NCBI GenBank assembly: GCA_963785035.1
Contig: CAWATG010000011.1
Span: 382,553-446,552 of the forward strand
Direction of reading: 5' to 3'
Origin: an uncultured Acidimicrobiia bacterium
GTDB taxonomy: Bacteria; Actinomycetota; Acidimicrobiia; IMCC26256; CAWATG01
Length of the DNA: 64,000 nt
Numbering within the stretch: the stretch's first letter is position 1; each line of letters opens with the position of its first letter. Below the pieces are notes generated by a model. That model saw only the letters and a program-made list of their open reading frames with translations, was not told the DNA's origin and ran no database searches. Shown one piece after another: positions 41,109 to 61,301 of the stretch. The position numbers were made by a program, and so were the translations under genes.

Positions 41109-42285
41109 TGAGCACGATGCACACGAGCGCGCCGTCGATGCGCTCGATGCAATCGATGAGCAGGATGCTGCAATTGATCATGATGCGGAGATCGGCGAGC
41201 CTGCTGAGGATCGCACATCTCGAGCCTCGGCGCGCGAACTCCGGCGTTCACAACGCAGGCGTGCGCGACGTCGGCGCCGGACGGTTATAGCGATCCTGGT
41301 CCTGGTCCTGTTGCTACCGGTGTTCGTCGTCGGCGGCTGGGTATGGGTTCAAATCGATCCTCCCGGGAGTCCGGGAAGTCGCGTGAGTGTCGTCGTGCAG
41401 GATGGCTGGAACGTCAGTGAGATAGGTGACGAGTTGCAGGCGAAAGGAGTCGTCGGATCGTCGCTTGTGTTCCGGCTCTACTCGCGTGCGACAAAGGCCG
41501 GACCATTTCGCGCCGGCCGCTTCGACCTGCGCCGTGATATCGGCGCGCGTGCAGCGGTCACTGCGCTCGAGAAGAAGCCGAAGTTGGTGTTTCGCAAGCT
41601 GGCACTTCCACCTGGACTGACGCTCGAGATGATCGCCGCGCGTGTTGGTGAGCTTCCTGGCTTGTCGGCAGAGCGATTCTTGGAGGTCGCCGGCGGAAAC
41701 CTGGTTCGGTCTGCATTTCAACCCGGTTCGGTGAGCTCCCTGGAGGGGTTGACATGGCCCGATACGTATTTCGTCGACCCGGCGCAGGATGAACGGTCGA
41801 TTTTGGCGATGATCGTTGCTCGGTTCGACGACCAACTCCAAAAGCTCGGGGTGAGTTCGCTGCCTCCACCCGCGGGCGTGAGCGCCTACGAGGCGCTGGT
41901 TGCGGCGTCCCTGATCCAAACCGAGGCGAAGGTCCAGGAGGACCGACCGTTGATCTCCGCGGTGATCTACAACCGGATCCGAGCCGGAATGCTCCTGCAG
42001 ATCGACGCGACGGTCCTCTATGCACGCGGGAGCCGTGAGGGCGCCATCACGAAGTCCGATCTCGCGTTGGCCTCGCCGTATAACACGTATGCGACAAAGG
42101 GTTTGCCGCCGACACCGATCGCCACGCTTTCGAGCGCTTCGATCATGGCGGCATTCCAACCGGACGACGTGCCCTATCTGTTCTACGTCTTGGCCGACGC
42201 GAATGGCAAGCACGCGTTTGGCGTGACCGCCGAGGACCATGAGCGCAATGTTGCAGCGGCACGTGCAAAGGGTTTGCTCGGGTGA
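41101..42285 (+). CDS. mltG: Endolytic transglycosylase MltG
   Basis: LEGLTWPDTY, ASLIQTE, VIYNRI, LQIDATV, SPYNTY..GLPPTPI, YLFYV. Confidence 0.93.
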   Translation: MVDEHDAHERAVDALDAIDEQDAAIDHDAEIGEPAEDRTSRASARELRRSQRRRARRRRRTVIAILVLVLLLPVFVVGGWVWVQIDPPGSPGSRVSVVVQDGWNVSEIGDELQAKGVVGSSLVFRLYSRATKAGPFRAGRFDLRRDIGARAAVTALEKKPKLVFRKLALPPGLTLEMIAARVGELPGLSAERFLEVAGGNLVRSAFQPGSVSSLEGLTWPDTYFVDPAQDERSILAMIVARFDDQLQKLGVSSLPPPAGVSAYEALVAASLIQTEAKVQEDRPLISAVIYNRIRAGMLLQIDATVLYARGSREGAITKSDLALASPYNTYATKGLPPTPIATLSSASIMAAFQPDDVPYLFYVLADANGKHAFGVTAEDHERNVAAARAKGLLG

Positions 42286-43148
42286 GCGAACGATCCTCGA
42301 TCACCGCGCGCACGAACGTCGTCGCACTCATTGGTGACCCGATCGGACATTCGTTGTCGCCAACGATCTTCAACGCGGCCTTTGACGCCGCACAACTGGA
42401 TTGGGTGTGCGTCGCGCTGCCGGTACCGGCAGGCAACGGTGAGGCAGCGGTCGCTGCAATGCGCCTGTTCGGGATCCGGGGACTCGCGGTGACAATGCCC
42501 CATAAGGAGGCCGTCGTCGCAGGCTGCGACGAGCTGACCCCCGACGGTCAAGCCCTCGGAGCCGTCAACTGTCTGACGCTCCTCGAGGACGGTCGAATCC
42601 AGGGGGATTCCACCGATGGCCGGGGGTTCGTCCGGTCGCTGGGCAACGAGGGCGTCGATGTTTCGGGCCGGCGTGTCCTCGTTCTCGGTGCGGGTGGTGC
42701 CGCGCGGTCGATCATCCTGGCACTCGGGCGTGGCGGTGCGCGGGTCACGGTCGCGGCTCGCCGCGTCGAGGCCGCCCGTGCGGCGGGCTCACTCGCTCGC
42801 GAATCACGGGCGGTATCGATGCTCGAACTGGACTCGGCTGCGAGCGACGCCGATGTCATCGTGAACGCGACGCCGTTGGGTATGAACGGGGAGATTCCGC
42901 CGCTGTCCGTGGAAATGTTGCACACGGGGCAGTTCGTGGCGGACACGGTGTATCACCCGTTGGAGACGCCGCTGCTCGCGGCCGTGCGATCTCGCGGAAT
43001 CCCGGCGGTCAATGGTGTGGGGATGCTGATCGAACAGGCCGTGCCGATCTTCGAACGTTGGACGGGACGCCAGGCGCCCGTCTCGGCCATGTACGGCGCG
43101 GCGCAGGACGTACTCCGGCGCGCCGCGGCGCGGCGCGCCGGACACTGA
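42282..43148 (+). CDS. aroE: Shikimate dehydrogenase
   Basis: GDPIGHSLSP, VTMPHK, GAVN, GAGGAAR, NATPLGM, GMLIEQA. Confidence 0.95.
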   Translation: MSERSSITARTNVVALIGDPIGHSLSPTIFNAAFDAAQLDWVCVALPVPAGNGEAAVAAMRLFGIRGLAVTMPHKEAVVAGCDELTPDGQALGAVNCLTLLEDGRIQGDSTDGRGFVRSLGNEGVDVSGRRVLVLGAGGAARSIILALGRGGARVTVAARRVEAARAAGSLARESRAVSMLELDSAASDADVIVNATPLGMNGEIPPLSVEMLHTGQFVADTVYHPLETPLLAAVRSRGIPAVNGVGMLIEQAVPIFERWTGRQAPVSAMYGAAQDVLRRAAARRAGH

Positions 43149-43245: not shown

Positions 43246-44292
43246 GTGGCCCTTATGGGAACTCTGGACACAATTGCACTGGATGACGTGTTCGGTCTCC
43301 TGGAGCATGCCAGGAAGACGGGCGCGCTCCATGTGAATGCCCCGCATTTCGCCGGATTGCTGTTCTTCGTCGACGGTCAGATCTCGGCCGGGCAGAGCGA
43401 CCTCGCCTCCATGGCGGTGGAAAGGACCCCTGAGGAGTTCTCGAACCACATCGTCGATCTCATGTGTGAGCTGCTGCTCCTCAGCGAGGGAGACTTCGAG
43501 TTTCGCACCGAAGAAGTGTTCGACGCAGGCGGTGTTCAACCGGTGTCGACCCAGGCAATGCTGGGGCACGTCCGTTCGATCCTCGCAGACTGGCCGACGG
43601 TCGAGACGGTGATCCCGTCGAACACCGTGCAGCCACGCCTGGTCGATGAGCCCTACTACGAAACCGTGACGGTCGATCGTGCGGCATGGCGGGTGCTCTT
43701 CGCCGTCGACGGCGTTCGTACGGTTCGCGAGATCGCATTGGCGGTCAATTCCGGCATCGTTGCGACGAGTTTCGCATTACGTGACCTGGTTCATGTCGGC
43801 GCCGTGGAGATCTTGGGGTCCGATGGGAGCGTGATCGCGGACGTTCATTCGGTGGACGTGGCCTCGCCAGACGTCCAACGAGTGGGTCGAAACGCCGGCC
43901 CGCCCTCGGAGGTGGTGGAGGACATGGGCGACGACGATTCGGCGCTCGATGCGCCATTGGACGACGATCCCACGACCGACCATGACGCGCTCTTGGCATC
44001 CCTGCACGACCTTTCTTCGTATGGGACTGCGGGATCGAAAACTGCAGGCGCCTCGGTCTTCGACCAGACCGGCGAAGGTCGGTCCGGCAGGCTCGGCCTT
44101 ACCGACCTGAGCAGATATCCACGGATTCCTGCGGCACGGGAGATCGAGGCGCAGGGCGAGGTACAGGGCGACGGGCCGGGTTGGGGGCCGGGGGAGTTCC
44201 CAGCCGACATGACGAACGCCGAGGACGCCTCCTCTCAAACCGAGGAGCGGGGTGTCCTGATGCGGATGTTCGCCACCCTCCGCGAGAGCTGA
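43246..44292 (+). CDS. DUF4388 (PATAN-like) domain protein with winged-helix-like segment and acidic disordered tail
   Basis: GTG start after AGGAGG; MALMGTLDTIALDDVFGLL..RKTGALHV, EGDFEF, WRVLFAVDGVRTVREIA. Confidence 0.78.
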   Translation: MALMGTLDTIALDDVFGLLEHARKTGALHVNAPHFAGLLFFVDGQISAGQSDLASMAVERTPEEFSNHIVDLMCELLLLSEGDFEFRTEEVFDAGGVQPVSTQAMLGHVRSILADWPTVETVIPSNTVQPRLVDEPYYETVTVDRAAWRVLFAVDGVRTVREIALAVNSGIVATSFALRDLVHVGAVEILGSDGSVIADVHSVDVASPDVQRVGRNAGPPSEVVEDMGDDDSALDAPLDDDPTTDHDALLASLHDLSSYGTAGSKTAGASVFDQTGEGRSGRLGLTDLSRYPRIPAAREIEAQGEVQGDGPGWGPGEFPADMTNAEDASSQTEERGVLMRMFATLRES

Positions 44293-44370: not shown

Positions 44371-44379
44371 ATGGGGAAA

Positions 44380-46854
44380 ATGCGGCTCTCTGTGCGTCTG
44401 GAGGAAACGCTGTCCACGAGCCAAAGCCTGGGAGCACTGCTCCGTGCAGAGGGCTTGCTAACGCAGGCCCAGCTCGACGCGGCAATTTCCGACCAGGAAG
44501 GCAGCGCCAAACCGCTCGGACGGATTCTTATCGACCGTGGTCTGATCACCGAAGTGGAGCTTGTTCGGACACTTGCTCGACAGCTCGGCATGGAGTTCGT
44601 CGACCTCGACGGCGTCGAGATCGACGCTTCGGCTGCCAACACGATTCCCGAAATGTTGGCGCGTCGCTACCAGGCATTGCCGATCGGCTGGGAAGGCGAA
44701 TTCTTGGTCCTCGCCGTCGCCGATCCCGCCAACGTGTTCGCCGTTGACGACATTCGTGCGATTGCGGGCGTCGAGCTCAAGACCGTGGTGGCGACCAGTT
44801 CCCAGGTTCTCGACGCCATCAGTCGAACATATCGCGCCGGCGGTGAATCGCCGACCGCCGGTCTCGTCGATGAATCTGAGCTGGTGCCCGACGCCGAGGT
44901 GGCCGACGCCGCTCACGCTGCGGATCGCGATGGCGAGAACGGAAGTTCGCTGGATGTTGCCAGGGCGATCTTCGACCAGATCTCGGACTTCGATGCGCCC
45001 GCCGAGCCGGAGCGCGGCGACAGCGTCGAACCAACGACCGCCGAAACGGCCGACGCAACGGCCGATGCAACGGTCGACGTAACGGCCGAAGCCGATGCCG
45101 TCGTTGCGGGGAGCGAGGTCGTCGAACCTGCGCCTGAACCGCCCAAGTCGCGGCGCCGGTCGAAGAAGGCTGCGATTGAACCCGAAGCGCTCGCCGACCT
45201 CGACGTGATCGCACAGGCAGCATCCGAAGCTGCGGCCGTCCTCGAATCCCCACCCGAGGAGGTGAAGGCCCCTGAGTCTGCGCGTGAAGGTCGTGGCGTC
45301 GGTGATGGCGTCAACGCCGAGATCGACCGTCAGCGCGAGCGCGCCGCGAAAATTGGAATGCCATTCGTTGACCTGACCGAGTGGCAGATCGACGCGAGCG
45401 TGGTGTCGCTCATTCCCGAGGCTGTCGCTCGTCGATACCAGGTGCTCCCGATTGGATGGGACGACGACCGTCTCGTCATCGCGATGTTCGACCCGACGAA
45501 CGTGTTCGCGATCGACGACATCCGCGCGATCACGAAAAGGGAGGTCAAGACCGTCGTCGTTGCGGGGTCGCAGCTTGGTGATGCGATCGACCGTGTCCAC
45601 CGTCTCGATTCCGAAGTCGACACCGTGGCGCAGGCCGCGGCGACCGAATTCGACACGCCCGACGACATCGCATCATTGCGTGAGGTCGTCGAGGATGCCC
45701 CGATCGTCAAGTTCGTCAACCTCTTGATCGCGCAGGCTGTGTCGGATCGGGCGTCGGACATCCATGTCGAGCCCACCGAACGTGACCTGCGGATCCGGTT
45801 CCGCATCGACGGTGTGCTGCACGAGGTGATGCACTCGCCCAAATCGATCCAGGCTGGTGTGATCAGCCGCCTCAAGATCATGGCTGAGATCGACATCGCC
45901 GAGCGCCGGATCCCCCAGGATGGACGCATCTCGCTGTCGATCGGCGGCAAGCCGGTCGATCTTCGTGTCGCAACGCTTCCCACGGTGTACGGCGAGAAGA
46001 TCGTCATGCGAATCCTCGACAAGAGCACCGCGCTGTTGCGGCTCGACGATCTGGGCTTCCTTCCCGAAGCGGGAAAGCGTTTCGAACAGTCCTACCGCAA
46101 GCCGTACGGAACCATTCTCGTAACCGGTCCCACCGGGTCGGGAAAGTCGACCACGCTGTACGCGACGCTGAACATTCTCAATGAACCGGATCGGAACGTC
46201 ATCACCGTTGAAGACCCGGTTGAGTATCGACTGGCCGGGATCAACCAGGTCCAGATCAATCCCAAGGCCGGGCTCTCGTTTGCGGCGGCCCTGCGATCGA
46301 TCCTCCGGTCGGATCCCGACATCGTCCTCGTCGGCGAGATCCGCGACCGGGAAACTGCGGTGATCGCTGTGGAGGCAGCGTTGACCGGTCACCTCGTGCT
46401 CTCGACCTTGCACACCAACGATGCCGCCTCGACACCGATGCGACTGGTCGAAATGGGTGTGGAGCCGTTCCTCGTGACGAGCGCGCTCGACTGCGTCGTC
46501 GCCCAGCGGCTGGCTCGGCGCCTCTGCGAGCGCTGCCGCGAGCCGTTCCAGCCGACGGAGGCGGATCTGCTCGCTGCGTCCTGGCACGTCGAGGATCTCG
46601 ACGAGCTGCCGACGCTGTATCGGGCGGCGGGATGCGCCACCTGTGGGCGGACGGGCTATAAGGGGCGTTTCGGTATTCATGAGGTGATGACGCTTTCCGA
46701 GGAGATCGAGCGGGCGATCATCGAGCGCAGGTCGACCGAGGACATCAAGAAGATCGCGACCATGCAGGGGATGGTCCCGATGCGAGATGACGGCCTCCGT
46801 AAGGTTGCGGCAGGGCTGACGAGCCTCGAGGAAATCTTCCGAGTCGTCGCCTGA
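44380..46854 (+). CDS. pilB: Type IV pilus extension ATPase with MshEN motif and two T2SSE_N domains
   Basis: ASDIH.EP, RIPQDGR, GPTGSGKSTTLY, EDPVEY, GEIRDRET, tetra-Cys (CERC...CATC); start could be 44371 or 44380. Confidence 0.95.
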   Translation: MRLSVRLEETLSTSQSLGALLRAEGLLTQAQLDAAISDQEGSAKPLGRILIDRGLITEVELVRTLARQLGMEFVDLDGVEIDASAANTIPEMLARRYQALPIGWEGEFLVLAVADPANVFAVDDIRAIAGVELKTVVATSSQVLDAISRTYRAGGESPTAGLVDESELVPDAEVADAAHAADRDGENGSSLDVARAIFDQISDFDAPAEPERGDSVEPTTAETADATADATVDVTAEADAVVAGSEVVEPAPEPPKSRRRSKKAAIEPEALADLDVIAQAASEAAAVLESPPEEVKAPESAREGRGVGDGVNAEIDRQRERAAKIGMPFVDLTEWQIDASVVSLIPEAVARRYQVLPIGWDDDRLVIAMFDPTNVFAIDDIRAITKREVKTVVVAGSQLGDAIDRVHRLDSEVDTVAQAAATEFDTPDDIASLREVVEDAPIVKFVNLLIAQAVSDRASDIHVEPTERDLRIRFRIDGVLHEVMHSPKSIQAGVISRLKIMAEIDIAERRIPQDGRISLSIGGKPVDLRVATLPTVYGEKIVMRILDKSTALLRLDDLGFLPEAGKRFEQSYRKPYGTILVTGPTGSGKSTTLYATLNILNEPDRNVITVEDPVEYRLAGINQVQINPKAGLSFAAALRSILRSDPDIVLVGEIRDRETAVIAVEAALTGHLVLSTLHTNDAASTPMRLVEMGVEPFLVTSALDCVVAQRLARRLCERCREPFQPTEADLLAASWHVEDLDELPTLYRAAGCATCGRTGYKGRFGIHEVMTLSEEIERAIIERRSTEDIKKIATMQGMVPMRDDGLRKVAAGLTSLEEIFRVVA

Positions 46855-46878
46855 GAGCGGCCGGGCCGACTTGGCTCA

Positions 46879-46912: not shown

Positions 46913-48451
46913 ATGTTGGCTGGTCAGGCGCGACGCCTGGGTGAGTTCCTTGTGGATCGTCACGTGCTCTCGCGCGACGACCTCGAGGTGGCGGTTGCCG
47001 AGTCCCGCCAGTCGGGCGACGCCCTGCCCAAGATCCTGCTGCGTGCAGGTCTGGTGGCGGAGAAGGATCTCACCGCGGCGATTGCCGAGTCGCTCAGTCT
47101 TCGCTTCATCGACTTCAGTGCCACCCCGTTGCATCCCGATGCCGCGTCGATCATTCCGGCCGACGTCGCTCGACGGCATCTTGCAATCGGGGTGCACTTC
47201 GAGGGTGACAAGTTGGTTGTGGCGTTTGCGGAGCCCAACGACGACGAGGCGGTCGCTGCGGTTGCGGCCTCGACAGCATTCGAGATCATCGCGGTGGCAG
47301 CGGGTCGCCTCGAGCTGAGCAACGTCGTGAAAGCGGTATACGGCGCGGGTGCTCACTCGGCCGATGATGTGGCCGGCAGCGATGGGGTTCCGCTCGACAT
47401 CAACGAGCTCCTCGAATGCGTCCTCCAGCGAAAAGGATCGGACCTCCACCTGACGGCGGGTTCACCCCCGGTCGTGCGCGTGCACGGCCAGCTCGTGCCA
47501 CTTCGTGAGTTCCCGGTGCTCAACGGCTCCCAGATCCGCGAGATGATCTACGCCGTGCTGTCCCAGAAGCAGCGCGAGAAGTTCGAGAACGAGCACGAAC
47601 TCGACACGTCGTACTCGATGCCCGGTCGCAGTCGCTTCCGCGTCAATGTGTTTCTGCAGCGCGACTCGGTCGGATGCGTCATGCGTGTGATCCCATACGA
47701 GATCGTCGACTTCGACACGCTGGGTGTTCCGCCGACGGTTCGCCCCTTTGCCGAACTCCCGCGGGGGCTGGTGCTGGTCACCGGTCCGACCGGTTCGGGA
47801 AAGTCGACGACCCTCGCGTCGCTCATCGACATCGTGAATCGGACGAAGCCCGTTCACATCATGACGGTCGAGGACCCGATCGAGTTCCTGCACCAACACA
47901 AGCGCGCGATCGTGAATCAGCGCGAGGTGGGGGAGGACACGTATTCGTTCGCAGCGGCGCTCAAGCATGTGTTGCGCCAGGATCCAGACGTCATCCTCGT
48001 CGGCGAGATGCGTGACCTCGACACCATCACCACGGCGTTGACGGCTGCCGAGACCGGTCACCTCGTCTTCGCGACCCTGCACACGCAGGACGCGCCGCAG
48101 TCCATCGACCGCATCATCGACGTGTTCCCGTCGGCGCAGCAGCAGCAGGTTCGGGTGCAGCTCGCATCGTCATTGCAGGGAATCGTGACGCAACAGCTCC
48201 TACCGACGCCTGACGGTACGGCCCGGGTCATTGCGTGCGAGGTACTGGTCGCCACCCCGGCGATCCGGAACCTGATCCGCGAAGGCAAGGTCCATCAGAT
48301 CTATTCCTTGATGCAGGCAGGCGGCAAGTTCGGAATGATCACGATGGATCAGTCGCTTGCGAGCTTGGTGACCGCCGGACGCATCACTTTTGATGTCGCT
48401 GCCGAGCGTTGTGCGAACGAAGGCGATCTCCAGCGCCTCTTGGGCCGGTAA
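46913..48451 (+). CDS. pilT: Type IV pilus retraction ATPase with N-terminal MshEN/T2SSE_N domain
   Basis: GSDLHL, RFRVNVF, GPTGSGKSTT, VNQREVG, GEMRD and the PilT hallmark AIRNLIRE; ~155-aa N-terminal extension starting RLGEFL. Confidence 0.93.
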   Translation: MLAGQARRLGEFLVDRHVLSRDDLEVAVAESRQSGDALPKILLRAGLVAEKDLTAAIAESLSLRFIDFSATPLHPDAASIIPADVARRHLAIGVHFEGDKLVVAFAEPNDDEAVAAVAASTAFEIIAVAAGRLELSNVVKAVYGAGAHSADDVAGSDGVPLDINELLECVLQRKGSDLHLTAGSPPVVRVHGQLVPLREFPVLNGSQIREMIYAVLSQKQREKFENEHELDTSYSMPGRSRFRVNVFLQRDSVGCVMRVIPYEIVDFDTLGVPPTVRPFAELPRGLVLVTGPTGSGKSTTLASLIDIVNRTKPVHIMTVEDPIEFLHQHKRAIVNQREVGEDTYSFAAALKHVLRQDPDVILVGEMRDLDTITTALTAAETGHLVFATLHTQDAPQSIDRIIDVFPSAQQQQVRVQLASSLQGIVTQQLLPTPDGTARVIACEVLVATPAIRNLIREGKVHQIYSLMQAGGKFGMITMDQSLASLVTAGRITFDVAAERCANEGDLQRLLGR

Positions 48452-48468: not shown

Positions 48469-49689
48469 ATGGCAACGACATTTGCATACAAGGTTCGGGA
48501 TCGCAACGGCAAGATCGTCGAAGGCGAGCTCGAGGGCGACAGCTTGGTCCTCGTGACCGGAAAGCTTCGGACGATGGGCTACACGCCCATTTCGATCCAG
48601 CAGCAGGACGCCTCGAAACTCAAGACCGAAATCAAGATCCCCGGATTTTCCAACCGGATCAAGCTCAAGGACGTGGCCGTCTTCTCGCGTCAGTTCGCGA
48701 CGATGATCAACTCCGGCCTCTCGATGCTGCGTGCGCTGACAATCCTCTCGGAACAGACCGAGAACAAGGAGCTTGGCAGGGTTGCCGGTGAGGTCCGCCT
48801 CGACGTTGAGCGCGGCAGTTCCCTGTCAGGCGCGCTGTCTCGCCACCCGAAGGCGTTCAACCGGCTCTATGTCTCGATGGTCAAGTCGGGCGAGGCCGGC
48901 GGTGTGTTGGACTCGGTGCTGATGCGTCTCGCCGACACGATCGAGAAGCAGGTGGAGCTTCGCCGCAAGATCAAATCCGCGATGACCTACCCGGTCGTTG
49001 TGGGCTTCCTCGTGTTCGCCATCGCAGGCGCGATGATCGTCTTCGTGGTCCCGATGTTCGGGAACATCTACAAGGATCTCGGCGGCACGCTGCCGTTACC
49101 GACACGGGTGCTGCTGAAGGTCTCCGAGATCGTGCGCAAGTTCGTGATTCTGTTGGTGATGGCCGGAATCGGAATTGTCGTCGGGCTGCGGAAGTGGGTC
49201 AACACCCCGTCGGGTCGTCGTCAGTGGGATGCGTTGAAGTTGCGCATTCCGGTGTTCGGCGGACTCGTGCGAAAGACCGCGTTGGCTCGTTTCTCTCGCA
49301 CGCTCGCCGCATTGACGCGCTCGGGCGTTCCGATTCTGGAGTCGCTCGAGATCGTTGCCGATACAGCCGGCAACGAGGTCGTCGCCGACGCGGTGCGCGA
49401 TACCCAGGCTGCGGTGAAGGGCGGCGAGTCACTCGCGAAGCCGTTGGAGCGCCATGAGGTCTTCCCGCCGATGGTTGTGCAGATGATGGCGGTGGGTGAG
49501 GAGACCGGTGCGCTCGACGAGATGCTCGACAAGATCGCGGACTTCTACGACCAGGAGGTCGAGGCGACCGTTGACGCGCTGACCTCGCTGATCGAACCGC
49601 TACTGATCGTGGTGATGGGTCTCACCGTCGGAGGCATGATCATCAGTTTGTACATGCCGATGTTCAACATCGTGAAGCTCATCGAATAG
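48469..49689 (+). CDS. pilC: Type IV pilus platform protein (T2SS F family)
   Basis: FSRQFATMINSG, GEAGGVLD, KSAMTYP, GEETGALDEML, LIEP; RBS GAGGAG. Confidence 0.96.
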   Translation: MATTFAYKVRDRNGKIVEGELEGDSLVLVTGKLRTMGYTPISIQQQDASKLKTEIKIPGFSNRIKLKDVAVFSRQFATMINSGLSMLRALTILSEQTENKELGRVAGEVRLDVERGSSLSGALSRHPKAFNRLYVSMVKSGEAGGVLDSVLMRLADTIEKQVELRRKIKSAMTYPVVVGFLVFAIAGAMIVFVVPMFGNIYKDLGGTLPLPTRVLLKVSEIVRKFVILLVMAGIGIVVGLRKWVNTPSGRRQWDALKLRIPVFGGLVRKTALARFSRTLAALTRSGVPILESLEIVADTAGNEVVADAVRDTQAAVKGGESLAKPLERHEVFPPMVVQMMAVGEETGALDEMLDKIADFYDQEVEATVDALTSLIEPLLIVVMGLTVGGMIISLYMPMFNIVKLIE

Positions 49690-49710: not shown

Positions 49711-50929
49711 TCACGGGGCGCCCTGGTGGAGGCGGTGACTGTGAAACAGGCCGCGCTCAGCCGATGTGAGCACGCTCGCCGCGCAGATGATGATGAACCA
49801 GGGGGCGAGGCCGGCGCCGAAAACCTCTGCGCCCATCACCACGCACGCGATCGGTGTGTTGGCTGCCCCGGCGAAGACCGCGACGTAGCCGAGCATGGCG
49901 AACAGCGGAATCGGTGCACCGAGCCAATCGCCGAGCGTGACACCCGCCGTCGCGCCCATGACGAAGAGCGGGGTGACCTCGCCTCCCTGAAAGCCGCTTC
50001 CGAGGGTCACTGCGGTGAGGACGAGCTTCCACGCGAAGGCGAACGTAGCGATGCCGACGCCGCCTGCGAGCGACGCCTCCACCAGATCGGTCGAGGCGCC
50101 GAGATATTCGCGAGTTCCGACGATTCCGGTCAGGGCGATGATCGCCAAACCGCCGATTGCCAAACGGAGCGGCGGGTACTGCAGGAGGTGGCCGAGCACC
50201 TTCTGGATCCGATGGGTGAGGCCGACGAACGAAGCCGCAAGGAGCCCGCACGCCAGCCCGGCGAGCGCGACCTTCACAACGAGCAGCGCTGATACGTCGA
50301 AGTCGGGCCGAGTGCTGAGCACGTCCTCGTGGAGCCCGAATCCGCGCACGATGCGAGCGGCGACGAACGCCGCCGCGAGCGCAGGAACAAAAGCGCCGTA
50401 GCGGCGGTGTCCGCGTGCCTGGACCTCGAGAGCGAATACCGCGCCCGCGACAGGCGTACCGAACGCGCCGCCGAAAGCACCGGCCACGGCCGTGACCAAG
50501 ACCAGGCGCCGGTCGTCGCGGTCGAGTCGCAGCATGCGGGCCATCGCGTCGCTGAGGCTCCCCGCCATCTGTATCGCGACGCCCTCACGTCCGGCCGAAC
50601 CGCCGAAGAGATGCGTACTCACGGCTGCTACCAGCACGAAGGGCGCCATGCGACGCGGCACCCACGCGCGGCTCGTGGATCTCGTCGATGATCAGGGCGT
50701 TGCCATGGCGCGCGTCGCCCGCGAAGTGGTGGTAGATCGCCCCCATCGTCAACCCGGCCACCGGCAGGATCCACAACATCCAGGAATGCGCGAGGCGGGT
50801 TCGGGTCGCCCAGGAGAGGCCCTCGAGGAAGGCCGAGACGGCGAGACCGGAGACGGCGCCGACCAGTACACCGAGCCCGATGCCCCGAGCGGTGCGCCGA
50901 GCGGCACGCGCCGGGAACCATCGCCACAT
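49711..50929 (-). CDS. CLC-family channel, CLC-F-type fluoride/proton antiporter (frameshift ~50665)
   Basis: GNALII, GGSAGREGVA, GGEVTP, ANTP motifs; ORFs 50585..50941 and 49711..50661 join. Confidence 0.85.
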
Positions 50930-52829: not shown

Positions 52830-53033
52830 GTGACTCCTGAGCATCGTCTACTCACCGTTAGTGAGGTCGCTGATGCGATGCGGGTTTCGACGATGACTAT
52901 TTATCGGTTGATCAGGGCCGGGGAAATCGGGGCAATACGCGTGGGGCGCCATTTTCGGATTCGTGAGGCGGACCTTTCCGCGTATCTCGACGCGCAGACC
53001 GTGAAAGGAGACGGATCATGGCCCGCCGCCTGA
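52830..53033 (+). CDS. Excisionase/BldC-like HTH DNA-binding protein
   Basis: LLTVSEVADAMRVSTMTIYRLIRAGEIGAIRVGRHFRI; overlaps the pilM start. Confidence 0.88.
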   Translation: MTPEHRLLTVSEVADAMRVSTMTIYRLIRAGEIGAIRVGRHFRIREADLSAYLDAQTVKGDGSWPAA

Positions 53034-54790
53034 TCGGTCTCGACATCGGCACGAATGCCGTCACGGTCACCGAGGTCGAGGTCGGCAATCCGGCGACGCT
53101 GCGAGTGTTCGGCCAGGTCGCGCTGCCTCGCGACGTCATGCGCGAAGGCGAGATCGTCGACGTCGAGGTCGTCGCGAGCGCAATTCGTCGCCTCTGGCGC
53201 GAGGTCGGTCTGAAGAAGGGCGCGGTCCGCGTTGGCATCGGTACGCCGCGTCTGATCGTTCGTCCGGTCGAGCTTCCCGAGATGAACGAGGCCGATCTTG
53301 CAGGCGCGCTGCAGTTCCAAGCGCAAGATCTGATCCCGATACCGCTCGATGACGCGTACTTCGATTTTCAGGTGCTCGGCGCTGGCATCGATCCCGAAGG
53401 CAATGCCACCACGCGGGTCTTGCTTGCAGCAGCGCCACGAGAAACGATCACGCGCATCGTCGCGGCGGTCGAGTCCGCCGGGCTGAGTGTCGAAGCCGTC
53501 GACCTCGTCCCTCTCGCGCTCGTGCGCAGCCTCGCGACACCGGTCGATCCTGGCGCCGAACCCAGCGCCGAGGCGATTGTCTGCGTCGGTGCGGGTGTCA
53601 CGGTCGTCGTCGTGCACGAGTCGGGGAGCCCACGCTTCGCGCGAGTGTTGGGCTCCGGCGGGCGTGCCCTGACCGAAGCAATCGCAACCGACCTCGACCT
53701 CGCGTTCGAGGCGGCAGAGGCGCTGAAACGTCAAGGGATCAACACCGATGACGAGATCGGCGCTCGTGCACGCAGTGCAATCGAGGGTCCGCTCAACTCT
53801 TTGCTCGAAGATGTCCGCAGCTCGCTCGAGTTCTACCGCGCCCAGTCGGGCGGCGCCGAGGTCAAATCGGTGCTCCTCAATGGCGGTGGTTCACAACTGG
53901 TCGGTCTCGCCGACCGTCTCGAGACGGTGCTCGGTCTTCCCGTTACTCGGGCACATTGTCGATCACGGCTCGCGATCGGTGACATCGGCTTTGCTCCTGA
54001 CGAGTACGAGATGCTGGACCCGTACCTCTCCGTACCGGTTGGACTGGCATTCGGCGCAACGTCGACGGGACGAGCGATCGACCTGTCCCCGCCGAAGGAC
54101 CGGGGCGCGGCTGATCGGCGCAAGTTGGTGGCCGTCGTCGTGGTGATCGCACTTCTCTTGTTGGGCGGTCTGGGTTTCCTCACTGCGTCGCAACGAACGA
54201 AGCGGTCCGACCAACAAGCGCTCCTCGATCAGGAACGCGACACGAATGCCGCGGTCCAGGCAAAGATCGACGAGCTCGCGACCTTCGAAGCCCAACAGGC
54301 GCAGATCGACGTGATTCAAGGTCAGATCGCGGCGCTGTTGGCAACGGACGTCTCGTGGTCCCGCTTGCTCGAGGACATCGCGATGAAGATGCCGCAGAAC
54401 GATTGGTTGAGTTCGTTCCAGGGTACGGTCACCGCGGCGGCTCCCGCTGCTCCAGCGCCGGTTGCTCCTGCGCCAAGTGACGAAGGCTCGACGAGCACGA
54501 CGGGTACGACGAGCACGACGGTCCCTGCCGTTCCGGCACCAGCGGCCGCTGGGCTGTCCGGAACGGTGAGTATGACGCTCACCGGGAGAGACTTCACCGA
54601 CGTCTCGCAATGGCTCCTTCGGATGGCAGAGATCCCATCCCTGACCGATGTTTGGGTCCCAACTTCGACGAAGTCGGTGTCCGATGGTGGTTCCCAACAG
54701 ACGGTGTCGTTCTCCTCGACGGCGAAGATCACACCTCAGGCGAAGGCAACACGCAGTGAGCTCCGACAGAAGCTGAAGGTCGGACAATGA
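53018..54790 (+). CDS. pilM: Fused type IV pilus PilM-PilN protein
   Basis: IGLDIGT actin-like start, LNGGGSQL, PVGLAFG, then IDLSP + TM + coiled coil + VSWSRLL..MP..WL PilN domain. Confidence 0.88.
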   Translation: MARRLIGLDIGTNAVTVTEVEVGNPATLRVFGQVALPRDVMREGEIVDVEVVASAIRRLWREVGLKKGAVRVGIGTPRLIVRPVELPEMNEADLAGALQFQAQDLIPIPLDDAYFDFQVLGAGIDPEGNATTRVLLAAAPRETITRIVAAVESAGLSVEAVDLVPLALVRSLATPVDPGAEPSAEAIVCVGAGVTVVVVHESGSPRFARVLGSGGRALTEAIATDLDLAFEAAEALKRQGINTDDEIGARARSAIEGPLNSLLEDVRSSLEFYRAQSGGAEVKSVLLNGGGSQLVGLADRLETVLGLPVTRAHCRSRLAIGDIGFAPDEYEMLDPYLSVPVGLAFGATSTGRAIDLSPPKDRGAADRRKLVAVVVVIALLLLGGLGFLTASQRTKRSDQQALLDQERDTNAAVQAKIDELATFEAQQAQIDVIQGQIAALLATDVSWSRLLEDIAMKMPQNDWLSSFQGTVTAAAPAAPAPVAPAPSDEGSTSTTGTTSTTVPAVPAPAAAGLSGTVSMTLTGRDFTDVSQWLLRMAEIPSLTDVWVPTSTKSVSDGGSQQTVSFSSTAKITPQAKATRSELRQKLKVGQ

Positions 54791-56180: not shown

Positions 56181-56258
56181 ACCGATCGTGTGGATCCGCC
56201 TCGGGGTCACGAGGCGGGCGCCGGTATCCTGTGGCATTGCTCCCGAGGAGGTCGAGGC

Positions 56259-57413
56259 GTGCTGCGCTTCCTGACCGCCGGGGAATCCCATGGCCCGGCC
56301 CTCACGGTCGTCGTCGAAGGGCTCCCCGCCGGTCTTCCCATCTTGATCGACGACATTGCCTCTGAGCTGGCACGCCGCCGGCTCGGCTACGGGCGCGGTC
56401 CGCGCATGCGTTTCGAGCAGGACGACATCGAGATCCTCGGTGGGATTCGCCACGGCGTGACGCTCGGCTCGCCGGTGTCGATCATGATCCGCAACACCGA
56501 GTGGCCGAAGTGGGTCGACGAAATGTCGGCCGCTCCGGGTCTCACAGCTTCGCCGCTGCGCAGGCCACGTCCCGGCCACGCAGATCTCGTCGGTATGCAG
56601 AAGTACGGCTTCGACGACGCACGCAACGTGCTCGAACGAGCGAGCGCCCGTGAGACCGCCGCGCGGGTTGCCGCGGGAGCCCTCGCCAAGGTCTTGCTCC
56701 GCGAGTTCGGTACCACGGTGATCAGTCACGTGGTGCAGATGGGAGCGGTCCGTGCGTCCGTCGAGCAACGGCCCGGTCCCGACGATCTTGACGCGGTCGA
56801 TGCTTCCGAGGTTCGGTGTTTCGACGGCAGTGCCGACGCCGAGATGATTACCGCGATCAAGGCAGCTGCCAAGGAGGGTGACTCACTGGGCGGCGTCGTC
56901 GAGGTCCTCGGCTACGGCGTACCACCGGCGCTCGGGTCGTACGTGCATTGGGACCGCCGCATCGACGCGTTGCTCGCCCAGGCGCTCATGAGTATTCAAG
57001 CGATCAAAGGCGTCGAGATCGGCGACGCCCTCGAAACGGCAGGGCTTCCGGGAAGCCTTGCGCACGACGAGATCTTCTGGGATGAGGACAACGCCCAGTA
57101 CTCCCGCGAAACCGTGCGCGCGGGCGGAATCGAGGGTGGCATGACAACCGGTGGGCTCCTCGCTGCCCGTGTGGCAATGAAACCGTTGGCCACACTGAAT
57201 CGTCCTGTGCTGCGAACCGTTGACACCGAGACGAAAGAACAGGTGGTGTCGTTCAAGGAGCGCACCGACGTGACAGCGGTTCCCGCTGCAGGTGTCGTCG
57301 CCGAGACGATGGTCGCGCTGGTGATCGCGTCGGAGGCGTTACGAAAGTTCGGCGGTGACACCCTCGCCGAGGTCACCAGGAACTTCCGGTCGTTCCTGAA
57401 CACCCTGCGGTGA
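56259..57413 (+). CDS. aroC: Chorismate synthase
   Basis: LRFLTAGESHG, RPGHAD, LERASARETA, GGIEGGMT, MKP. Confidence 0.97.
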   Translation: MLRFLTAGESHGPALTVVVEGLPAGLPILIDDIASELARRRLGYGRGPRMRFEQDDIEILGGIRHGVTLGSPVSIMIRNTEWPKWVDEMSAAPGLTASPLRRPRPGHADLVGMQKYGFDDARNVLERASARETAARVAAGALAKVLLREFGTTVISHVVQMGAVRASVEQRPGPDDLDAVDASEVRCFDGSADAEMITAIKAAAKEGDSLGGVVEVLGYGVPPALGSYVHWDRRIDALLAQALMSIQAIKGVEIGDALETAGLPGSLAHDEIFWDEDNAQYSRETVRAGGIEGGMTTGGLLAARVAMKPLATLNRPVLRTVDTETKEQVVSFKERTDVTAVPAAGVVAETMVALVIASEALRKFGGDTLAEVTRNFRSFLNTLR

Positions 57414-57425
57414 GACGGCGGTGAG

Positions 57426-59156
57426 ATGGCGGTGAATCCGTCCGATCCACATTCAGCCGCGCCACGGCATCTCGTCCTCGTCGGGATGATGGGAGCGGGG
57501 AAATCCACCATTGGTCGGCTGTGCGCGGTGCGTCTTGGACGCACCTTTCTCGACACCGACGAAATGGTCGAGGGCCTTGCCGGAACTTCGGTCGCGGAGG
57601 TGTTCGCCGCCGAGGGTGAGGAGGCCTTTCGCGCCTTGGAACGAAGGGCGCTGGCCGACGCGTGCGCACGAGCCGAGCCGTTGGTCATCGCGTGCGGCGG
57701 TGGTGCGGTGTTGGAACCGGCAAATCGCGAGGCATTGCTCGCGACCGGTTTCGTCGTGTGGTTACAGGCGCCCGCTGCGATTCTGGCGGCGCGTGTCGGG
57801 CAAACGGGTGGTAGGCCCCTGCTTGACACCACCTCGGCCGGTCCCGACACGGCTCGGGCAAGGGCCGCCTCCAACCCGGACATCACCGAAGTCCTGAGAC
57901 GGATCGCCGAGGAACGAGAGCCGATCTACAGCGCTGTCTCCGACATTGTTCTCGACGCCACCGATGGCAACGCCGAAGAGATCGCCGCGACGGTTGTGCG
58001 TGCCTATGAGGATGCACAGCTCTTCGCGACACCGCGCAGCGCTGTTCAGGACCGGGAATTGCCGACGAGCCGATCCACTCGGCGGATACCCGTCGCGCTC
58101 GGCGAGCGCAGCTACGAGATCACGGTTGGGACGCACGCGCTGGACCATCTCGCGGTGCTGCTCGCCGGCCGGCGAAGGGTCGCGATCGTGACGCAGCAGG
58201 CGGTCGCCGACGCGCATATCCACCAGGTCGTCGAACCGCTCGAGCGAGTGGGTGTGACCTCCGAGGTTTTCGTCATGGGCGATGGTGAGGGCGCCAAGAC
58301 AATGGCGACCGTGGAAGCGCTCTGCAGCGATCTCGTCGCATGGGGTCTACTGCGCGACGACGCACTGGTCGCGTTCGGCGGCGGAATCGTCGGCGATACC
58401 GCTGGGTTTGCCGGGGCCATTTACCACCGCGGGATCGCAGTCGTGCAGGCGCCGACGACACTGCTCGCGCAGGTCGATGCGGCAATCGGTGGAAAGACCG
58501 CCGTCAACCTCCCCGAAGGAAAGAACCTGCTCGGAGCGTTTCACCAGCCAATCGGTGTCGTCGCCGATGTGTCGACCCTTCGGACGTTGCCCGAGCGCGA
58601 GTACCACGCCGGGCTCGGTGAGGTCGCCAAGTACGCACTGATGGGTGACCGGCCGCTCCTCGAGTTACTCGAGACGCGCGCTCCGGAGGTTCGTTCTCGA
58701 GATCTGGATGTGCTCGTCGAGTTGGTCGCGCACTGCGCCGAGGCGAAGGCCGCAGTGGTGACATCGGACGAGACCGAACGGACCGGCCTTCGCGCGACGT
58801 TGAACTACGGGCACACACTCGCGCACGCGCTCGAAACGGCAAGCGAACACGAACTGCTCCACGGCGAAGCGGTGGCGATCGGGCTTGTCTTCGCAGCCGC
58901 GCTCGCCGCCGAACTCGGTCGTGTCCCTGCTGCATTTGTCGACCGCACCGAGGCCATGCTCGCGGGAATGGGTCTGTGCACCCGCGCGCCCAAGGGACTG
59001 CAGGTGCCGGCGCTGGTCGCGCTCATGCAGCGGGACAAAAAGGCCCGTGGAGGTCTGACGTTCATCCTTGCCGACAACGATGGACTCACACGGGTCGATG
59101 ACCCGCCGATGAGGGCTATAGAACGCGCGTGCGCGGTCGTCGGCGTGGGAGGCTAG
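57426..59156 (+). CDS. aroB: Bifunctional shikimate kinase / 3-dehydroquinate synthase (AroK-AroB)
   Basis: GMMGAGKST, CGGG, RPLL followed in frame by GGGIVGD, PTTLLAQVDAAIGGK, LNYGHT, HGEAV. Confidence 0.93.
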   Translation: MAVNPSDPHSAAPRHLVLVGMMGAGKSTIGRLCAVRLGRTFLDTDEMVEGLAGTSVAEVFAAEGEEAFRALERRALADACARAEPLVIACGGGAVLEPANREALLATGFVVWLQAPAAILAARVGQTGGRPLLDTTSAGPDTARARAASNPDITEVLRRIAEEREPIYSAVSDIVLDATDGNAEEIAATVVRAYEDAQLFATPRSAVQDRELPTSRSTRRIPVALGERSYEITVGTHALDHLAVLLAGRRRVAIVTQQAVADAHIHQVVEPLERVGVTSEVFVMGDGEGAKTMATVEALCSDLVAWGLLRDDALVAFGGGIVGDTAGFAGAIYHRGIAVVQAPTTLLAQVDAAIGGKTAVNLPEGKNLLGAFHQPIGVVADVSTLRTLPEREYHAGLGEVAKYALMGDRPLLELLETRAPEVRSRDLDVLVELVAHCAEAKAAVVTSDETERTGLRATLNYGHTLAHALETASEHELLHGEAVAIGLVFAAALAAELGRVPAAFVDRTEAMLAGMGLCTRAPKGLQVPALVALMQRDKKARGGLTFILADNDGLTRVDDPPMRAIERACAVVGVGG

Positions 59157-59161
59157 GGGCT

Positions 59162-59608
59162 ATGGCAACGATTCTGCTCATTTCAGGACCGAACCTGAAC
59201 CTGTTCGGGCAGCGTGATCCTGCGGTGTACGGCACCGACACCCTCGAGGACATGGTCGCCGATGTGGCTGCAGTGTTGGAGCCTGCCGGCCATCAGGTAC
59301 GTCATGTCCAAAGCAGCTCCGAAGGTGTCATCGTCGATGCCATCCACGACGCGCGAAACGACTGTGCGGCGATCATCATCAACCCAGGCGCGTTCGGCCA
59401 TTACGCGTATGCGATCGCCGACGCGCTCTCGATGTTCGACGGTCCGAAAATCGAATTGCATGTCTCGAACCCGTTGGCGCGCGAAGCGTGGCGGCATCAG
59501 TCGGTCATAGCGGGTGTCGTCGACGCCGGCATTGCAGGATTCCGCCGTCTCGGCTATCGCCTTGCGGCGATCGCGGTCGTCGAACAATTGGGAGGCAAGA
59601 GCGTATGA
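59162..59608 (+). CDS. aroQ: Type II 3-dehydroquinate dehydratase
   Basis: GPNLNLFGQRDP.VYG, IINPGA, ELHVSN, REAWRH.S. Confidence 0.95.
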   Translation: MATILLISGPNLNLFGQRDPAVYGTDTLEDMVADVAAVLEPAGHQVRHVQSSSEGVIVDAIHDARNDCAAIIINPGAFGHYAYAIADALSMFDGPKIELHVSNPLAREAWRHQSVIAGVVDAGIAGFRRLGYRLAAIAVVEQLGGKSV

Positions 59609-60744
59609 GCACGACCAACGCACCCGGCGAGACTCGACCGCTCCAGTTGTCACCGATGCAGCACGGAGCACGGCTCCCGCGCGTGCATGCGGCGATCGAC
59701 GAGGCCGACGTCGACGCGCTCTTGGTCACGAACCTCGTCAACATTCGTTACCTCACGGGATTCACCGGTTCTGCTGCGATGTTGCTCGTCGCCAACTCGG
59801 GCCTGTTGCTGGTGACCGATGGTCGCTATGCCACACAGGCAGCTGAACAGCTCGCGGCGGCGGGCGTGGCGGCACGGCTCGAGATCCACGCAACGGCGTC
59901 AGCGCAACTCGACGCGATCGCCAGTGCGCTCACGGCCGAGGGTGTCGGACGCCTCGGCCTCGAAGCAGGCAACATCACCTGGGCTCGGCAGCGCAGCTTC
60001 ACCGAGCGGTTCGTTCCCATCGAGATGGTGGCGACGTCGGACCTTGTCGAGGACCTCCGACGATGCAAGGATCCCGAAGAGGTCGCAAGAATCCGTGCCG
60101 CCTGCGCGATTGGTGATGAGGCGCTCGCAGCGGTGGCGCCGACCTTGGCGCAGCGGCCGCGAGAGCGTGACGTCGCGTTGGCCCTGGAGGTCGAGATGCG
60201 CCGCCGCGGCGCGAGCGGCACGAGCTTCGAGACCATCGTGGCGTCCGGGCCGAACGCGGCGAAGCCACACCATCGTCCGACGGACCGCCAGATCGAACAC
60301 GGTGAACTCGTGGTGCTCGACTTCGGTTGCGTCGTCGACGGGTATTGCTCGGACATGACCAGAACGCTGAGCGTCGGCGATCCCGGTACCGAAGCAACCC
60401 GCATCTACGAAGTGGTTCGTGCCGCGCAACAGGCTGGGCGCGATGCGCTCAAGGCCGGAGTGACCTGTGCAGAGGTGGACGAGGCATGCCGGGAGGTGAT
60501 CGCTGCTGCCGGTTGGGCGGAGGCATTCAGCCACGGCACCGGCCACGGTGTGGGCCTCGACATTCATGAGGCGCCGAGGGTCGGCGCGACGGTCCGTGAT
60601 ACTTTGGCCGTTGGCCACGTCGTAACCGTCGAGCCGGGCGTGTACCTCCCGGGCCTCGGCGGCGTCCGAATCGAGGACACGCTCGTCGTCACCGGTGAGG
60701 GTGCAGACGTCCTCACCACATCCCCGAAGGGACTGCTCTTGTGA
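59605..60744 (+). CDS. Xaa-Pro aminopeptidase (M24)
   Basis: YLTGFTGS, TDGRY, DFG...GYCSDMTRT, HGTGHGVG, EPGVY, GVRIED. Confidence 0.93.
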   Translation: MSTTNAPGETRPLQLSPMQHGARLPRVHAAIDEADVDALLVTNLVNIRYLTGFTGSAAMLLVANSGLLLVTDGRYATQAAEQLAAAGVAARLEIHATASAQLDAIASALTAEGVGRLGLEAGNITWARQRSFTERFVPIEMVATSDLVEDLRRCKDPEEVARIRAACAIGDEALAAVAPTLAQRPRERDVALALEVEMRRRGASGTSFETIVASGPNAAKPHHRPTDRQIEHGELVVLDFGCVVDGYCSDMTRTLSVGDPGTEATRIYEVVRAAQQAGRDALKAGVTCAEVDEACREVIAAAGWAEAFSHGTGHGVGLDIHEAPRVGATVRDTLAVGHVVTVEPGVYLPGLGGVRIEDTLVVTGEGADVLTTSPKGLLL

Positions 60745-61301
60745 GCATCTCCACCAATGATCTGAAGAACGGCATGTCACTTGACCTTCCCGAGGGGTTG
60801 GTCTGTGTGGTGGAGTTCCAGCATGTCAAGCCGGGCAAGGGCGGCGCGTTCGTGCGGACCAAGCTCAAGAACTGGCGTACGCACAACGTGCTCGAACGGA
60901 CCTTCCGTGCTGACGAGAAGGTCAAGCTGGCAATGATCGACAAGCGTGAAATGCAGTACCTCTACCGTGAGGGCACCGCGTATGTCTTCATGGACAACTC
61001 CACCTATGACCAGATCAACGTCGAGACAGCGGATCTGGGCAGCGCCGTGAAGTACCTCAAGGAGGGCGACTCGGCGATCCTGCCGATCTACGACGACCAG
61101 GTGATCGGTGTGGATCTGCCCGCCTCCGTTGAGCTGACCGTGACCGAAACCGAGCCCGGACTCCAAGGAGACCGCGTCTCGGGTGCACGCAAGCCTGCCA
61201 CGATGGAGACTGGGCTTGTCGTGCAGGTGCCGCTGTTCGTCGAGGTCGGTGAGCGCATCAAGGTTGACACGCGCACCGGGGAATACCTGACGCGCGCGTA
61301 A
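60741..61301 (+). CDS. efp: Elongation factor P
   Basis: HVKPGKGGAF, KPATMETG, VPLF, DTRTGEY. Confidence 0.97.
   Translation: MSISTNDLKNGMSLDLPEGLVCVVEFQHVKPGKGGAFVRTKLKNWRTHNVLERTFRADEKVKLAMIDKREMQYLYREGTAYVFMDNSTYDQINVETADLGSAVKYLKEGDSAILPIYDDQVIGVDLPASVELTVTETEPGLQGDRVSGARKPATMETGLVVQVPLFVEVGERIKVDTRTGEYLTRA

Follow-up and report, generated by a model that had tools for sequence, protein, structure and literature searches.

A PilT-type ATPase with an N-terminal MshEN domain in a type IVa pilus operon of an uncultured Acidimicrobiia bacterium

Introduction

How bacteria choose between extending and retracting a pilus is an open question, and the direct control by cyclic di-GMP (c-di-GMP) that is known acts on the extension motor or passes through adaptors. 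The c-di-GMP receptors on extension ATPases include the MshEN domain of MshE and the GSPII-B domain of Thermus PilF, and the MshEN consensus consists of two 24-residue motifs set five residues apart (PMC11731258, PMC5013675). In MshE, the guanine is reported to be bound by the backbone amides of the Gly at position 3 and of the residue that follows it, and the ribose and phosphate by Gln residues; a change of Gly11 abolished binding, the G11L and G40I variants showed no ligand-dependent stabilization, and changes of Arg9 or Gln32 reduced binding less than 5-fold (PMC5013675). According to a 2024 review, the GSPII domain separates extension from retraction ATPases (PMC11656802). Here we describe a gene, pilT, whose product combines a retraction-type core with an N-terminal MshEN domain. 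It lies in a 64,000-nucleotide stretch of DNA from an uncultured Acidimicrobiia bacterium (GCA_963785035.1, contig CAWATG010000011.1, positions 382,553 to 446,552), which we call the window and whose own positions are used below.

Related N-terminal domains have been described as nonbinders and as targets of other proteins. The GSPII-A domain of Thermus PilF has His and Arg in place of the two Gln residues and, in motif II, Ser at the Arg position and Ala at the Gly position; in the accessible text of that report, no c-di-GMP binding was detected by isothermal titration calorimetry or nuclear magnetic resonance, and binding was still absent once the consensus had been restored (PMC12002112). 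In Synechocystis, PATAN domains are reported to bind the N-terminal half of PilB1 and PilC's N-terminal domain and, as far as the accessible part of the preprint goes, not to bind PilT1 or PilT2, which lack an N-domain; PATAN is also said there to contain helical repeats like those that open N1 domains (bioRxiv 10.1101/2021.06.11.447907). For the MshEN domain on PilT itself, we found no description in the literature that we searched. In Supplementary Table 4 of Wang et al. (2016), 'MshEN - T2SSE' is listed with PilT and PilB not told apart, and in that supplementary file the word 'PilT' occurs in a reference title only (PMC5013675). Since there are proteins already named PilT in which both Pfam domains are marked, the architecture is present in databases and, as far as we searched, not in print.

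Results

An orthodox PilT core in an unbroken frame

The pilT gene occupies 46913..48451 on the forward strand and encodes a 512-aa protein, to which residue numbers refer unless the 526-aa reading is named. Its core is an orthodox PilT, closer to the solved PilT structures than to PilB or GspE. The NCBIfam model TIGR01420 (PilT/PilU) matched residues 177-516 of the 526-aa reading with 484.7 bits against a cut-off of 319.1, with the Pfam T2SSE match at 252-447 of the same reading, while the PilB/GspE models TIGR02538 (195.6 bits, cut-off 675.65) and TIGR02533 (148.9 bits, cut-off 630.25) rejected the protein. Against solved PilT chains, the core (about residues 163-512) scored 302-432 bits (E 8e-129 to 9e-107), the best being G. 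metallireducens PilT (6ojx, 432.5 bits), with 379 bits for A. aeolicus PilT and 360 bits for P. aeruginosa PilT; against PilB and GspE chains it scored only 95-114 bits.

The core (N2D plus CTD, 47399..48418) contains the elements that we take to be its Walker A (47783-47809), Walker B with the catalytic Glu (47987-48016), His box (48053-48082), and AIRNLIRE (48260-48283) motifs, all on the forward strand and identical throughout 20 aligned sequences. No paired CxxC, the PilB-type zinc motif, occurs in the PilT translation, whereas the neighboring PilB has them. The protein is predicted to act in retraction in vivo.

The reading frame runs unbroken (46871/46913-48451) to a TAA stop codon at 48449-48451, giving 526 aa from a TTG at 46871 or 512 aa from an ATG at 46913. 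Seventeen of 19 aligned relatives start at the Met of 46913, and the residues N-terminal of that Met are not conserved. Because homologues begin there, we took the ATG as the likely start and rejected the TTG, the first in-frame start codon. We also rejected an assembly artifact that had fused two genes, since the identical single-frame arrangement recurs in hundreds of independent records.

A complete MshEN domain joined by a flexible linker

Residues 1-146 make up a complete MshEN/GSPII domain, a four-helix bundle followed by an N1-type alpha/beta subdomain. The Pfam model PF05157 (MshEN) matched residues 76-160 of the 526-aa reading with 37.3 bits (cut-off 23.1, E 2.7e-9), and a sequence search with residues 1-165 retrieved Thermus PilF, Geobacter PilB, and V. 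cholerae MshE (5htl, E 3.8e-11). From a 33-row alignment, AlphaFold2 gave an N-domain model with a mean predicted local distance difference test score (pLDDT) of 90.4, which showed four helices and then an alpha/beta unit. The latter, the MshEN_C or T2SSE_N1 subdomain (residues 62-146, 47096..47350), had a pLDDT of 92-98; the tail of the model was of low confidence from about residue 145. There the linker to the core begins (47351..47398); the N-domain model gives it a pLDDT of 58-73, the 526-aa model falls below 50 at residues 160-172, and the length and sequence of the linker vary among relatives. The full-length model, built on a 20-row alignment, was poor (mean pLDDT 66.8, predicted template modeling score 0.37), with low confidence at residues 1-16 and 160-172 of the 526-aa reading, and it says nothing on how the N-domain is placed relative to the core.

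In a Foldseek search of the PDB with the N-domain model, the best 19 hits were all chains of MshE, PilF GSPII domains, the PilB N terminus, or the XpsE N terminus. The top match was MshE with c-di-GMP (5HTL; E 4.1e-10, template modeling [TM] scores 0.58/0.67), and the highest TM-score on the query, 0.63, belonged to the X. citri PilB N-domain with PilZ (7lkm); 2bh1 and 4pht, for GspE N1 with GspL, were hits as well. With the adjoining PilB's first MshEN domain, the N-domain shares 30% identity (E 1e-18), so it is no recent copy of that domain. Searched against protein representatives, the N-domain matched mostly short fragments or multi-MshEN PilB-type proteins at the top and added one distant full-length PilT-type protein (P0257, 521 aa).

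These results bear on an initial annotation of this DNA, made from the letters and a list of open reading frames, which had proposed that an MshEN domain and PilT are fused in one unbroken frame and had noted AIRNLIRE in the core. Profile hidden Markov models, fold, and homologues all bear out the fusion, and AIRNLIRE lies within the core as described. The two models it had suggested running, for MshEN and for PilT, both scored above their cut-offs, and the structural model it had suggested building was confident, with 5HTL as its first fold hit. It had added that a translation start at the PilT core would speak against the fusion; homologues begin instead at the Met of 46913.

An eroded c-di-GMP signature in the window's lineage

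Motif I of the N-domain (MshEN_N; residues 8-31, 46934..47005) keeps R-L-G, with His for Gly at position 10 and Ser for Gln at position 24. A spacer of five residues (residues 32-36, 47006..47020), the spacing reported for the consensus (PMC5013675), leads to a degenerate motif II (residues 37-60, 47021..47092) with Ala at position 1, Pro at the Gly position 3, and Ser at position 24. The Gly that the consensus has at position 3 of both motifs is present in motif I alone, and the Gln at position 24 is replaced by Ser twice. Compared by eye with the relaxed search motif of Wang et al. (2016), as given in the accessible text (PMC5013675), motif I departs at position 10 (His) and motif II at positions 1 (Ala) and 3 (Pro).

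The same pattern runs through 156 full-length relatives (157 alignment rows, the window's own protein being counted twice). Motif I has Gly at position 3, Glu at position 4, and His at position 10 in all 156 and Gln at position 24 in none. Motif II position 3 is Gly in none of them (Pro in 144, Thr in 7, Ala in 4, and Ser in 1), and position 24 is Gln in 32. As read from these motifs, the c-di-GMP signature is eroded in the window's lineage.

The initial annotation had recorded R-L-G in motif I and Ser for both terminal Gln residues, in agreement with this motif read-out. It had laid its emphasis on the Ser residues; those changes are real, but they are a lesser obstacle than the Pro at the Gly position of motif II, which, like the His at the tenth position of motif I, it had passed over. 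Its suggestion that retraction could be gated by a cyclic dinucleotide is, for c-di-GMP and given that Pro, not supported for the window's copy, and the evidence agrees better with its other suggestion, an N-domain partner, than with control by a ligand. Gating by c-di-GMP is plausible for the architecture in general, given the canonical motif on the PilT of other lineages described below.

An old fusion with a graded N-domain

The best 120 of 8000 scored homologues all carried PF05157 and PF00437 in 512-539 aa, were PilT wherever they were named, and came from Acidimicrobiia or Actinomycetota metagenome-assembled genomes; a search with the N-domain alone returned the same family. Identity of relatives to the window protein was 53-72% in the N-domain and 75-81% in the core. 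A scan of species genomes with the window protein found 12 loci, ten of them with titles naming Acidimicrobiia, Actinomycetes, or Actinobacteria. The cultured 'Actinobacteria bacterium IMCC26256', whose genome is complete, has the same gene and operon, its N-domain having 53% identity to that of the window. Across the loci, N-domain and core are in a single frame, save in one record with apparent frameshifts, and the gene order aroE, PATAN gene (where detectable), pilB, pilT, pilC is found in 11 of the 12. Three loci of the Acidimicrobiia type (L016, L017, and L020) stand under the titles Burkholderiales, Bifidobacterium breve, and Bordetella parapertussis and are probably mislabeled bins.

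We then drew 300 other genomes evenly from the phylum and took the best 150 matches per search, so that the counts are lower bounds; the tallies of the PilT-core and N-domain searches include four and three unpublished genomes, respectively. Because the score cannot split the N-domains of PilT and PilB outside the window's order, a fusion was called only if the N-domain match lay in the frame of the PilT core. This survey of how the architecture is distributed, also suggested in the initial annotation, found N-extended PilTs in at least 40 of the 300 genomes, spread over nine families, the window's genome being extra. Twenty-two of these genomes align to the window PilT from residue 21 or earlier, five from residues 62-64, and one from residue 99; ten have an N-domain match immediately upstream of the core that shares its open frame, as judged by contig, strand, and frame length, and two have an MshEN_C-like stretch in the last 120 upstream residues. 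The sequence was read for 38 of them, one other lying at a contig edge and one (G001) being taken from coordinates only, without which the count is 39. The MshEN_C or N1-type subdomain is kept in all 38. Among 22 further PilT genes of the phylum, 19 have no MshEN in the upstream stretch, of which at most the last 120 residues were read. Those 19 are 62-70% identical to the window core; in thirteen, at most 27 open-frame residues precede the core, and six have 62-241 residues, of which part was read, that are of low complexity or upstream of the likely start.

The c-di-GMP motif itself varies widely among the N-extended forms. We scored the N-extensions of 36 relatives with NF053729, the NCBIfam model of the MshE-type c-di-GMP motif (cut-off 38). 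All 14 scored members of one family (f20), which record names place in Actinomycetota, were strongly canonical at 61.0-71.7 bits; other relatives passed with 51.3, 48.2, and 42.0 bits, four lay near the cut-off at 38.0-39.9 bits, and 15 failed or gave no match, two of these on incomplete N-extensions. In another family (f18) none of seven passed, and five (L030 and L056-L059) keep MshEN_C alone. A PilT of family f16 (L071, genome G122) has a motif II-like helix and a Pro-rich linker, with no MshEN_C visible in the 120 upstream residues read. For comparison, the PilB of the window, whose first MshEN domain has near-canonical c-di-GMP motifs, scores 53.1 bits. Across the phylum, the c-di-GMP signature as scored by this model ranges from stronger than that of the window's PilB to absent, and the N1-type subdomain is the constant part.

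In a quick tree of 59 PilT cores with a PilB outgroup, fused forms appear in most major clades, and its well-supported branches require the 'full domain' label to change at least four times; because this is a quick tree with a very long outgroup branch, we claim neither a root nor a number of gains or losses. The ESM Atlas holds clusters of 511-546 aa with T2SSE and MshEN, most commonly in Actinomycetota, and also long PilT clusters with no Pfam MshEN match in Myxococcota, Lentisphaerota, and Hydrogenedentota. The two domains are truly fused, and the fusion is both constrained and of old standing in the phylum.

The pilus operon and its genome

The operon consists of a PATAN gene, pilB, pilT, and pilC and is followed by a pilin gene, a prepilin peptidase gene, a long pilM, and a pilO-like gene, all of the annotated pil features given here being on the forward strand. 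The extension ATPase PilB (44371..46854) has 827 aa and two MshEN domains (TIGR02538, 715.7 bits; two PF05157 stretches), with an acidic segment of low complexity, some 150 residues long, lying between them; the PilB proteins of related loci have about 560 aa and a single MshEN domain. The platform protein PilC (48469..49689) has two T2SSF domains (228 bits). PilM (53018..54790) is 590 aa long, with its PilM_2 match (142.8 bits) confined to residues 7-314 and a long C-terminal extension; it may be a PilM-PilN fusion resembling GspL, and it is a candidate docking partner for the N1-type subdomain. Three MshEN matches were found in the genome, two in PilB and one in PilT.

Just upstream of pilB lies the gene for a stand-alone PATAN (DUF4388) protein (43255..44292, forward strand; PF14332, 48 bits). 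It is the single PF14332 match genome-wide, and it is syntenic in relatives. In the window and in seven related loci (L012-L016, L021, and L023), the protein is folded over about 190 N-terminal aa, continues as a long acidic disordered linker, and ends in a conserved C-terminal peptide, approximately D-R-G-x-L-L-R-M-F-S-x-L-R, that resembles a docking motif. The binding pattern reported for PATAN domains in Synechocystis makes this neighbor a candidate partner of the PilT N-domain. A complex prediction for the PATAN protein (7-row alignment) and PilT residues 1-150 (33-row alignment), made with no controls, scored 0.00 in both runs and weighs on neither side as to binding. Elsewhere, PilF-type ATPases of Deinococcus and Thermus of about 885 aa (P0324-P0371) carry a precomputed PF14332 match beside MshEN, which fits the likeness reported between the helical repeats of PATAN and N1 domains (bioRxiv 10.1101/2021.06.11.447907).

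The pilus cluster is set within a conserved aro neighborhood (42282-43148 and 56190-61301), in the order alaS, mltG/yceG, aroE, pil genes, aroC, aroK-aroB, aroQ, pepP, and efp. Between pilC and the pilin gene, the cluster is broken by a CLC chloride channel gene on the reverse strand (49711-50661). Another contig (contig 5, 653723-654752, reverse strand; L002/L004) carries a second PilT paralogue, which begins at the core, with no N-domain, and is split over two frames, as a frameshifted pseudogene or through an assembly error.

Discussion

This locus reveals a large natural group of retraction motors that bear the very mark by which reviews recognize extension motors. We propose that the N-domain of the window's PilT is a handle by which the retraction motor docks onto the pilus platform or onto a regulator, a reading to which we assign a probability of roughly 0.5. 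The protein would be the retraction motor of a type IVa pilus, a hexameric PilT ATPase with an MshEN/GSPII domain tethered by a flexible linker, and in the window's copy this domain would serve mainly to bind protein. The handle would place PilT at the cytoplasmic platform of PilB (PilM/PilC) or, alternatively, would expose it to the regulators of PilB, such as the neighboring PATAN protein, and one site could then serve to exchange or regulate extension and retraction. The docking role suggests itself by analogy with GspE N1 and GspL, with the X. citri PilB N-domain and PilZ, and with the binding of PATAN domains reported for the N-terminal half of PilB1.

Several of our observations weigh against a docking handle and speak for a working sensor, in which c-di-GMP, or another guanine nucleotide held by the intact motif I half-site, would switch retraction on or off. 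The curated model NF053729 is still passed, if barely: 40.0 bits at residues 22-73 of the 526-aa reading and 41.6 bits on the N-domain alone. The sequence around both motifs is almost invariant in the 156 relatives; motif I keeps R/x-L-G-E, its Gly3 and Glu4 without exception, and the six guanine-stacking hydrophobics are retained (L/F, L, and L/I/M/T/V in motif I; L, L, and L/I in motif II), and hydrophobic first residues are reported to allow very tight binding (PMC11731258). In 6 of 11 related loci (L012-L016 and L023), PilB likewise has Pro at position 3 of motif II, beside a canonical motif I, and the PilB of the other five and of the window has Gly; the Pro may therefore be one that this clade tolerates and not a disabling change. 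The genome has 13 GGDEF matches, which points to c-di-GMP being made, and few known receptors for it (one PilZ and three MshEN matches). The failed rescue of PilF GSPII-A, as reported, suggests that binding, or its absence, is poorly predicted from the motifs alone (PMC12002112). In addition, the strongly canonical motif in all 14 PilTs of family f20 suggests that the ancestral fused PilT may well have bound c-di-GMP. Against these points stand the want of a motif II Gly3 in every one of the 156 relatives, where the G40I change in MshE is reported to remove the ligand effect (PMC5013675), the loss from the window's copy of both Gln residues that bind ribose and phosphate, the His at the motif I turn Gly, the departure of both motifs from the relaxed search motif of Wang et al., and the report that PilF GSPII-A, with the same pattern, does not bind (PMC12002112). 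On balance, we regard a working sensor in the window's PilT as possible and on the unlikely side, and direct gating of this copy by c-di-GMP as equally doubtful. A broader version would have the PilTs of the phylum gated ancestrally by c-di-GMP through the fused MshEN domain, with family f20 still so gated and the window retaining a half-site or a Pro-tolerant guanine-nucleotide site; we consider this rather improbable as a whole. If true, the two motors of a pilus, for extension and for retraction, would both answer directly to one messenger, and in opposite ways.

The erosion of the c-di-GMP signature could also mean that the domain is a decaying remnant of an ancestral sensor whose own function has been lost in the window's lineage, and related lineages have indeed lost the four-helix bundle (f18) or the entire extension (f24 and others). 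Yet the domain has its full length and a confidently modeled fold (pLDDT 90.4), its identity across the lineage is 53-72% and many of its residues are invariant, and both motif regions are kept by all 156 full-length relatives; such conservation is unlike that of a useless domain of 150 residues, and we think a remnant very unlikely. We hold as little of a bifunctional motor, a PilT that with its PilB-like N-domain also, or instead, drives pilus extension, even though PilT of V. cholerae is reported to promote extension of the MSHA pilus as well as its retraction (PMC9815625) and the N1 domain is thought to engage the platform in extension (PMC11656802). A complete PilB with MshEN domains of its own is encoded directly upstream, and the core, at 62-70% identity to N-domain-less PilTs of the same phylum, shows no departure from PilT.

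Returning to the docking handle, the group as a whole offers a graded series, from the canonical motif through the eroded motif to the N1-type subdomain alone. This series makes it testable whether the N1-type subdomain is a general platform-docking handle open to either motor, and also whether c-di-GMP acts directly on retraction.

Compared with the described systems, the window's N-domain has the same two-subdomain fold as the c-di-GMP receptors on extension ATPases, MshE (5HTL) and Thermus PilF GSPII-B (8pdk), and it shares with MshE/PilB-type MshEN domains the two 24-residue motifs, the five-residue spacer, the R-L-G of motif I, and the stacking hydrophobics. It differs from them in its retraction-type core, in the Pro for Gly of motif II, in Ser at both terminal Gln positions, in the His that replaces the motif I turn Gly, and in passing the motif model only marginally. 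PilF GSPII-A, the third-ranked fold hit, is like the window in having one good and one degenerate motif, with the terminal Gln replaced in both, and in motif II a small residue for Arg at position 1 and a non-Gly residue at position 3. Unlike the window's domain, it comes from an extension ATPase with three such domains, and its failure to bind is reported to depend also on the N-cap helix and inter-subdomain contacts, so the comparison holds at the level of the motif only. The N-domain also belongs to the fold family of the X. citri PilB N-domain in complex with PilZ (7lkm, 7lko) and of GspE N1 in complex with GspL (2bh1, 4pht), which are precedents for the domain as a protein-docking module rather than a ligand sensor, although those domains belong to extension or secretion ATPases and are just 14-17% identical to the window's.

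With canonical PilTs (6ojx, 5zfq, A. aeolicus 2ewv/2gsz, and P. aeruginosa 3jvu), the window core matches over its whole length and has the same motifs, and its gene sits in a pilB-pilT-pilC operon, as does that of the canonical PilT of type IVa pili. The initial annotation had held that canonical PilT lacks the MshEN domain, and the 2024 review, as far as its accessible text goes, agrees (PMC11656802). By that review, a retraction motor is recognized by the absence of the N-terminal GSPII/N1 domain; the window's PilT carries one, and the family defined by TIGR01420, to which it belongs, does not demand that absence. Canonical PilTs begin at the core and have about 345-390 aa, whereas the window's PilT has about 160 additional N-terminal residues, which are the MshEN domain and its linker.

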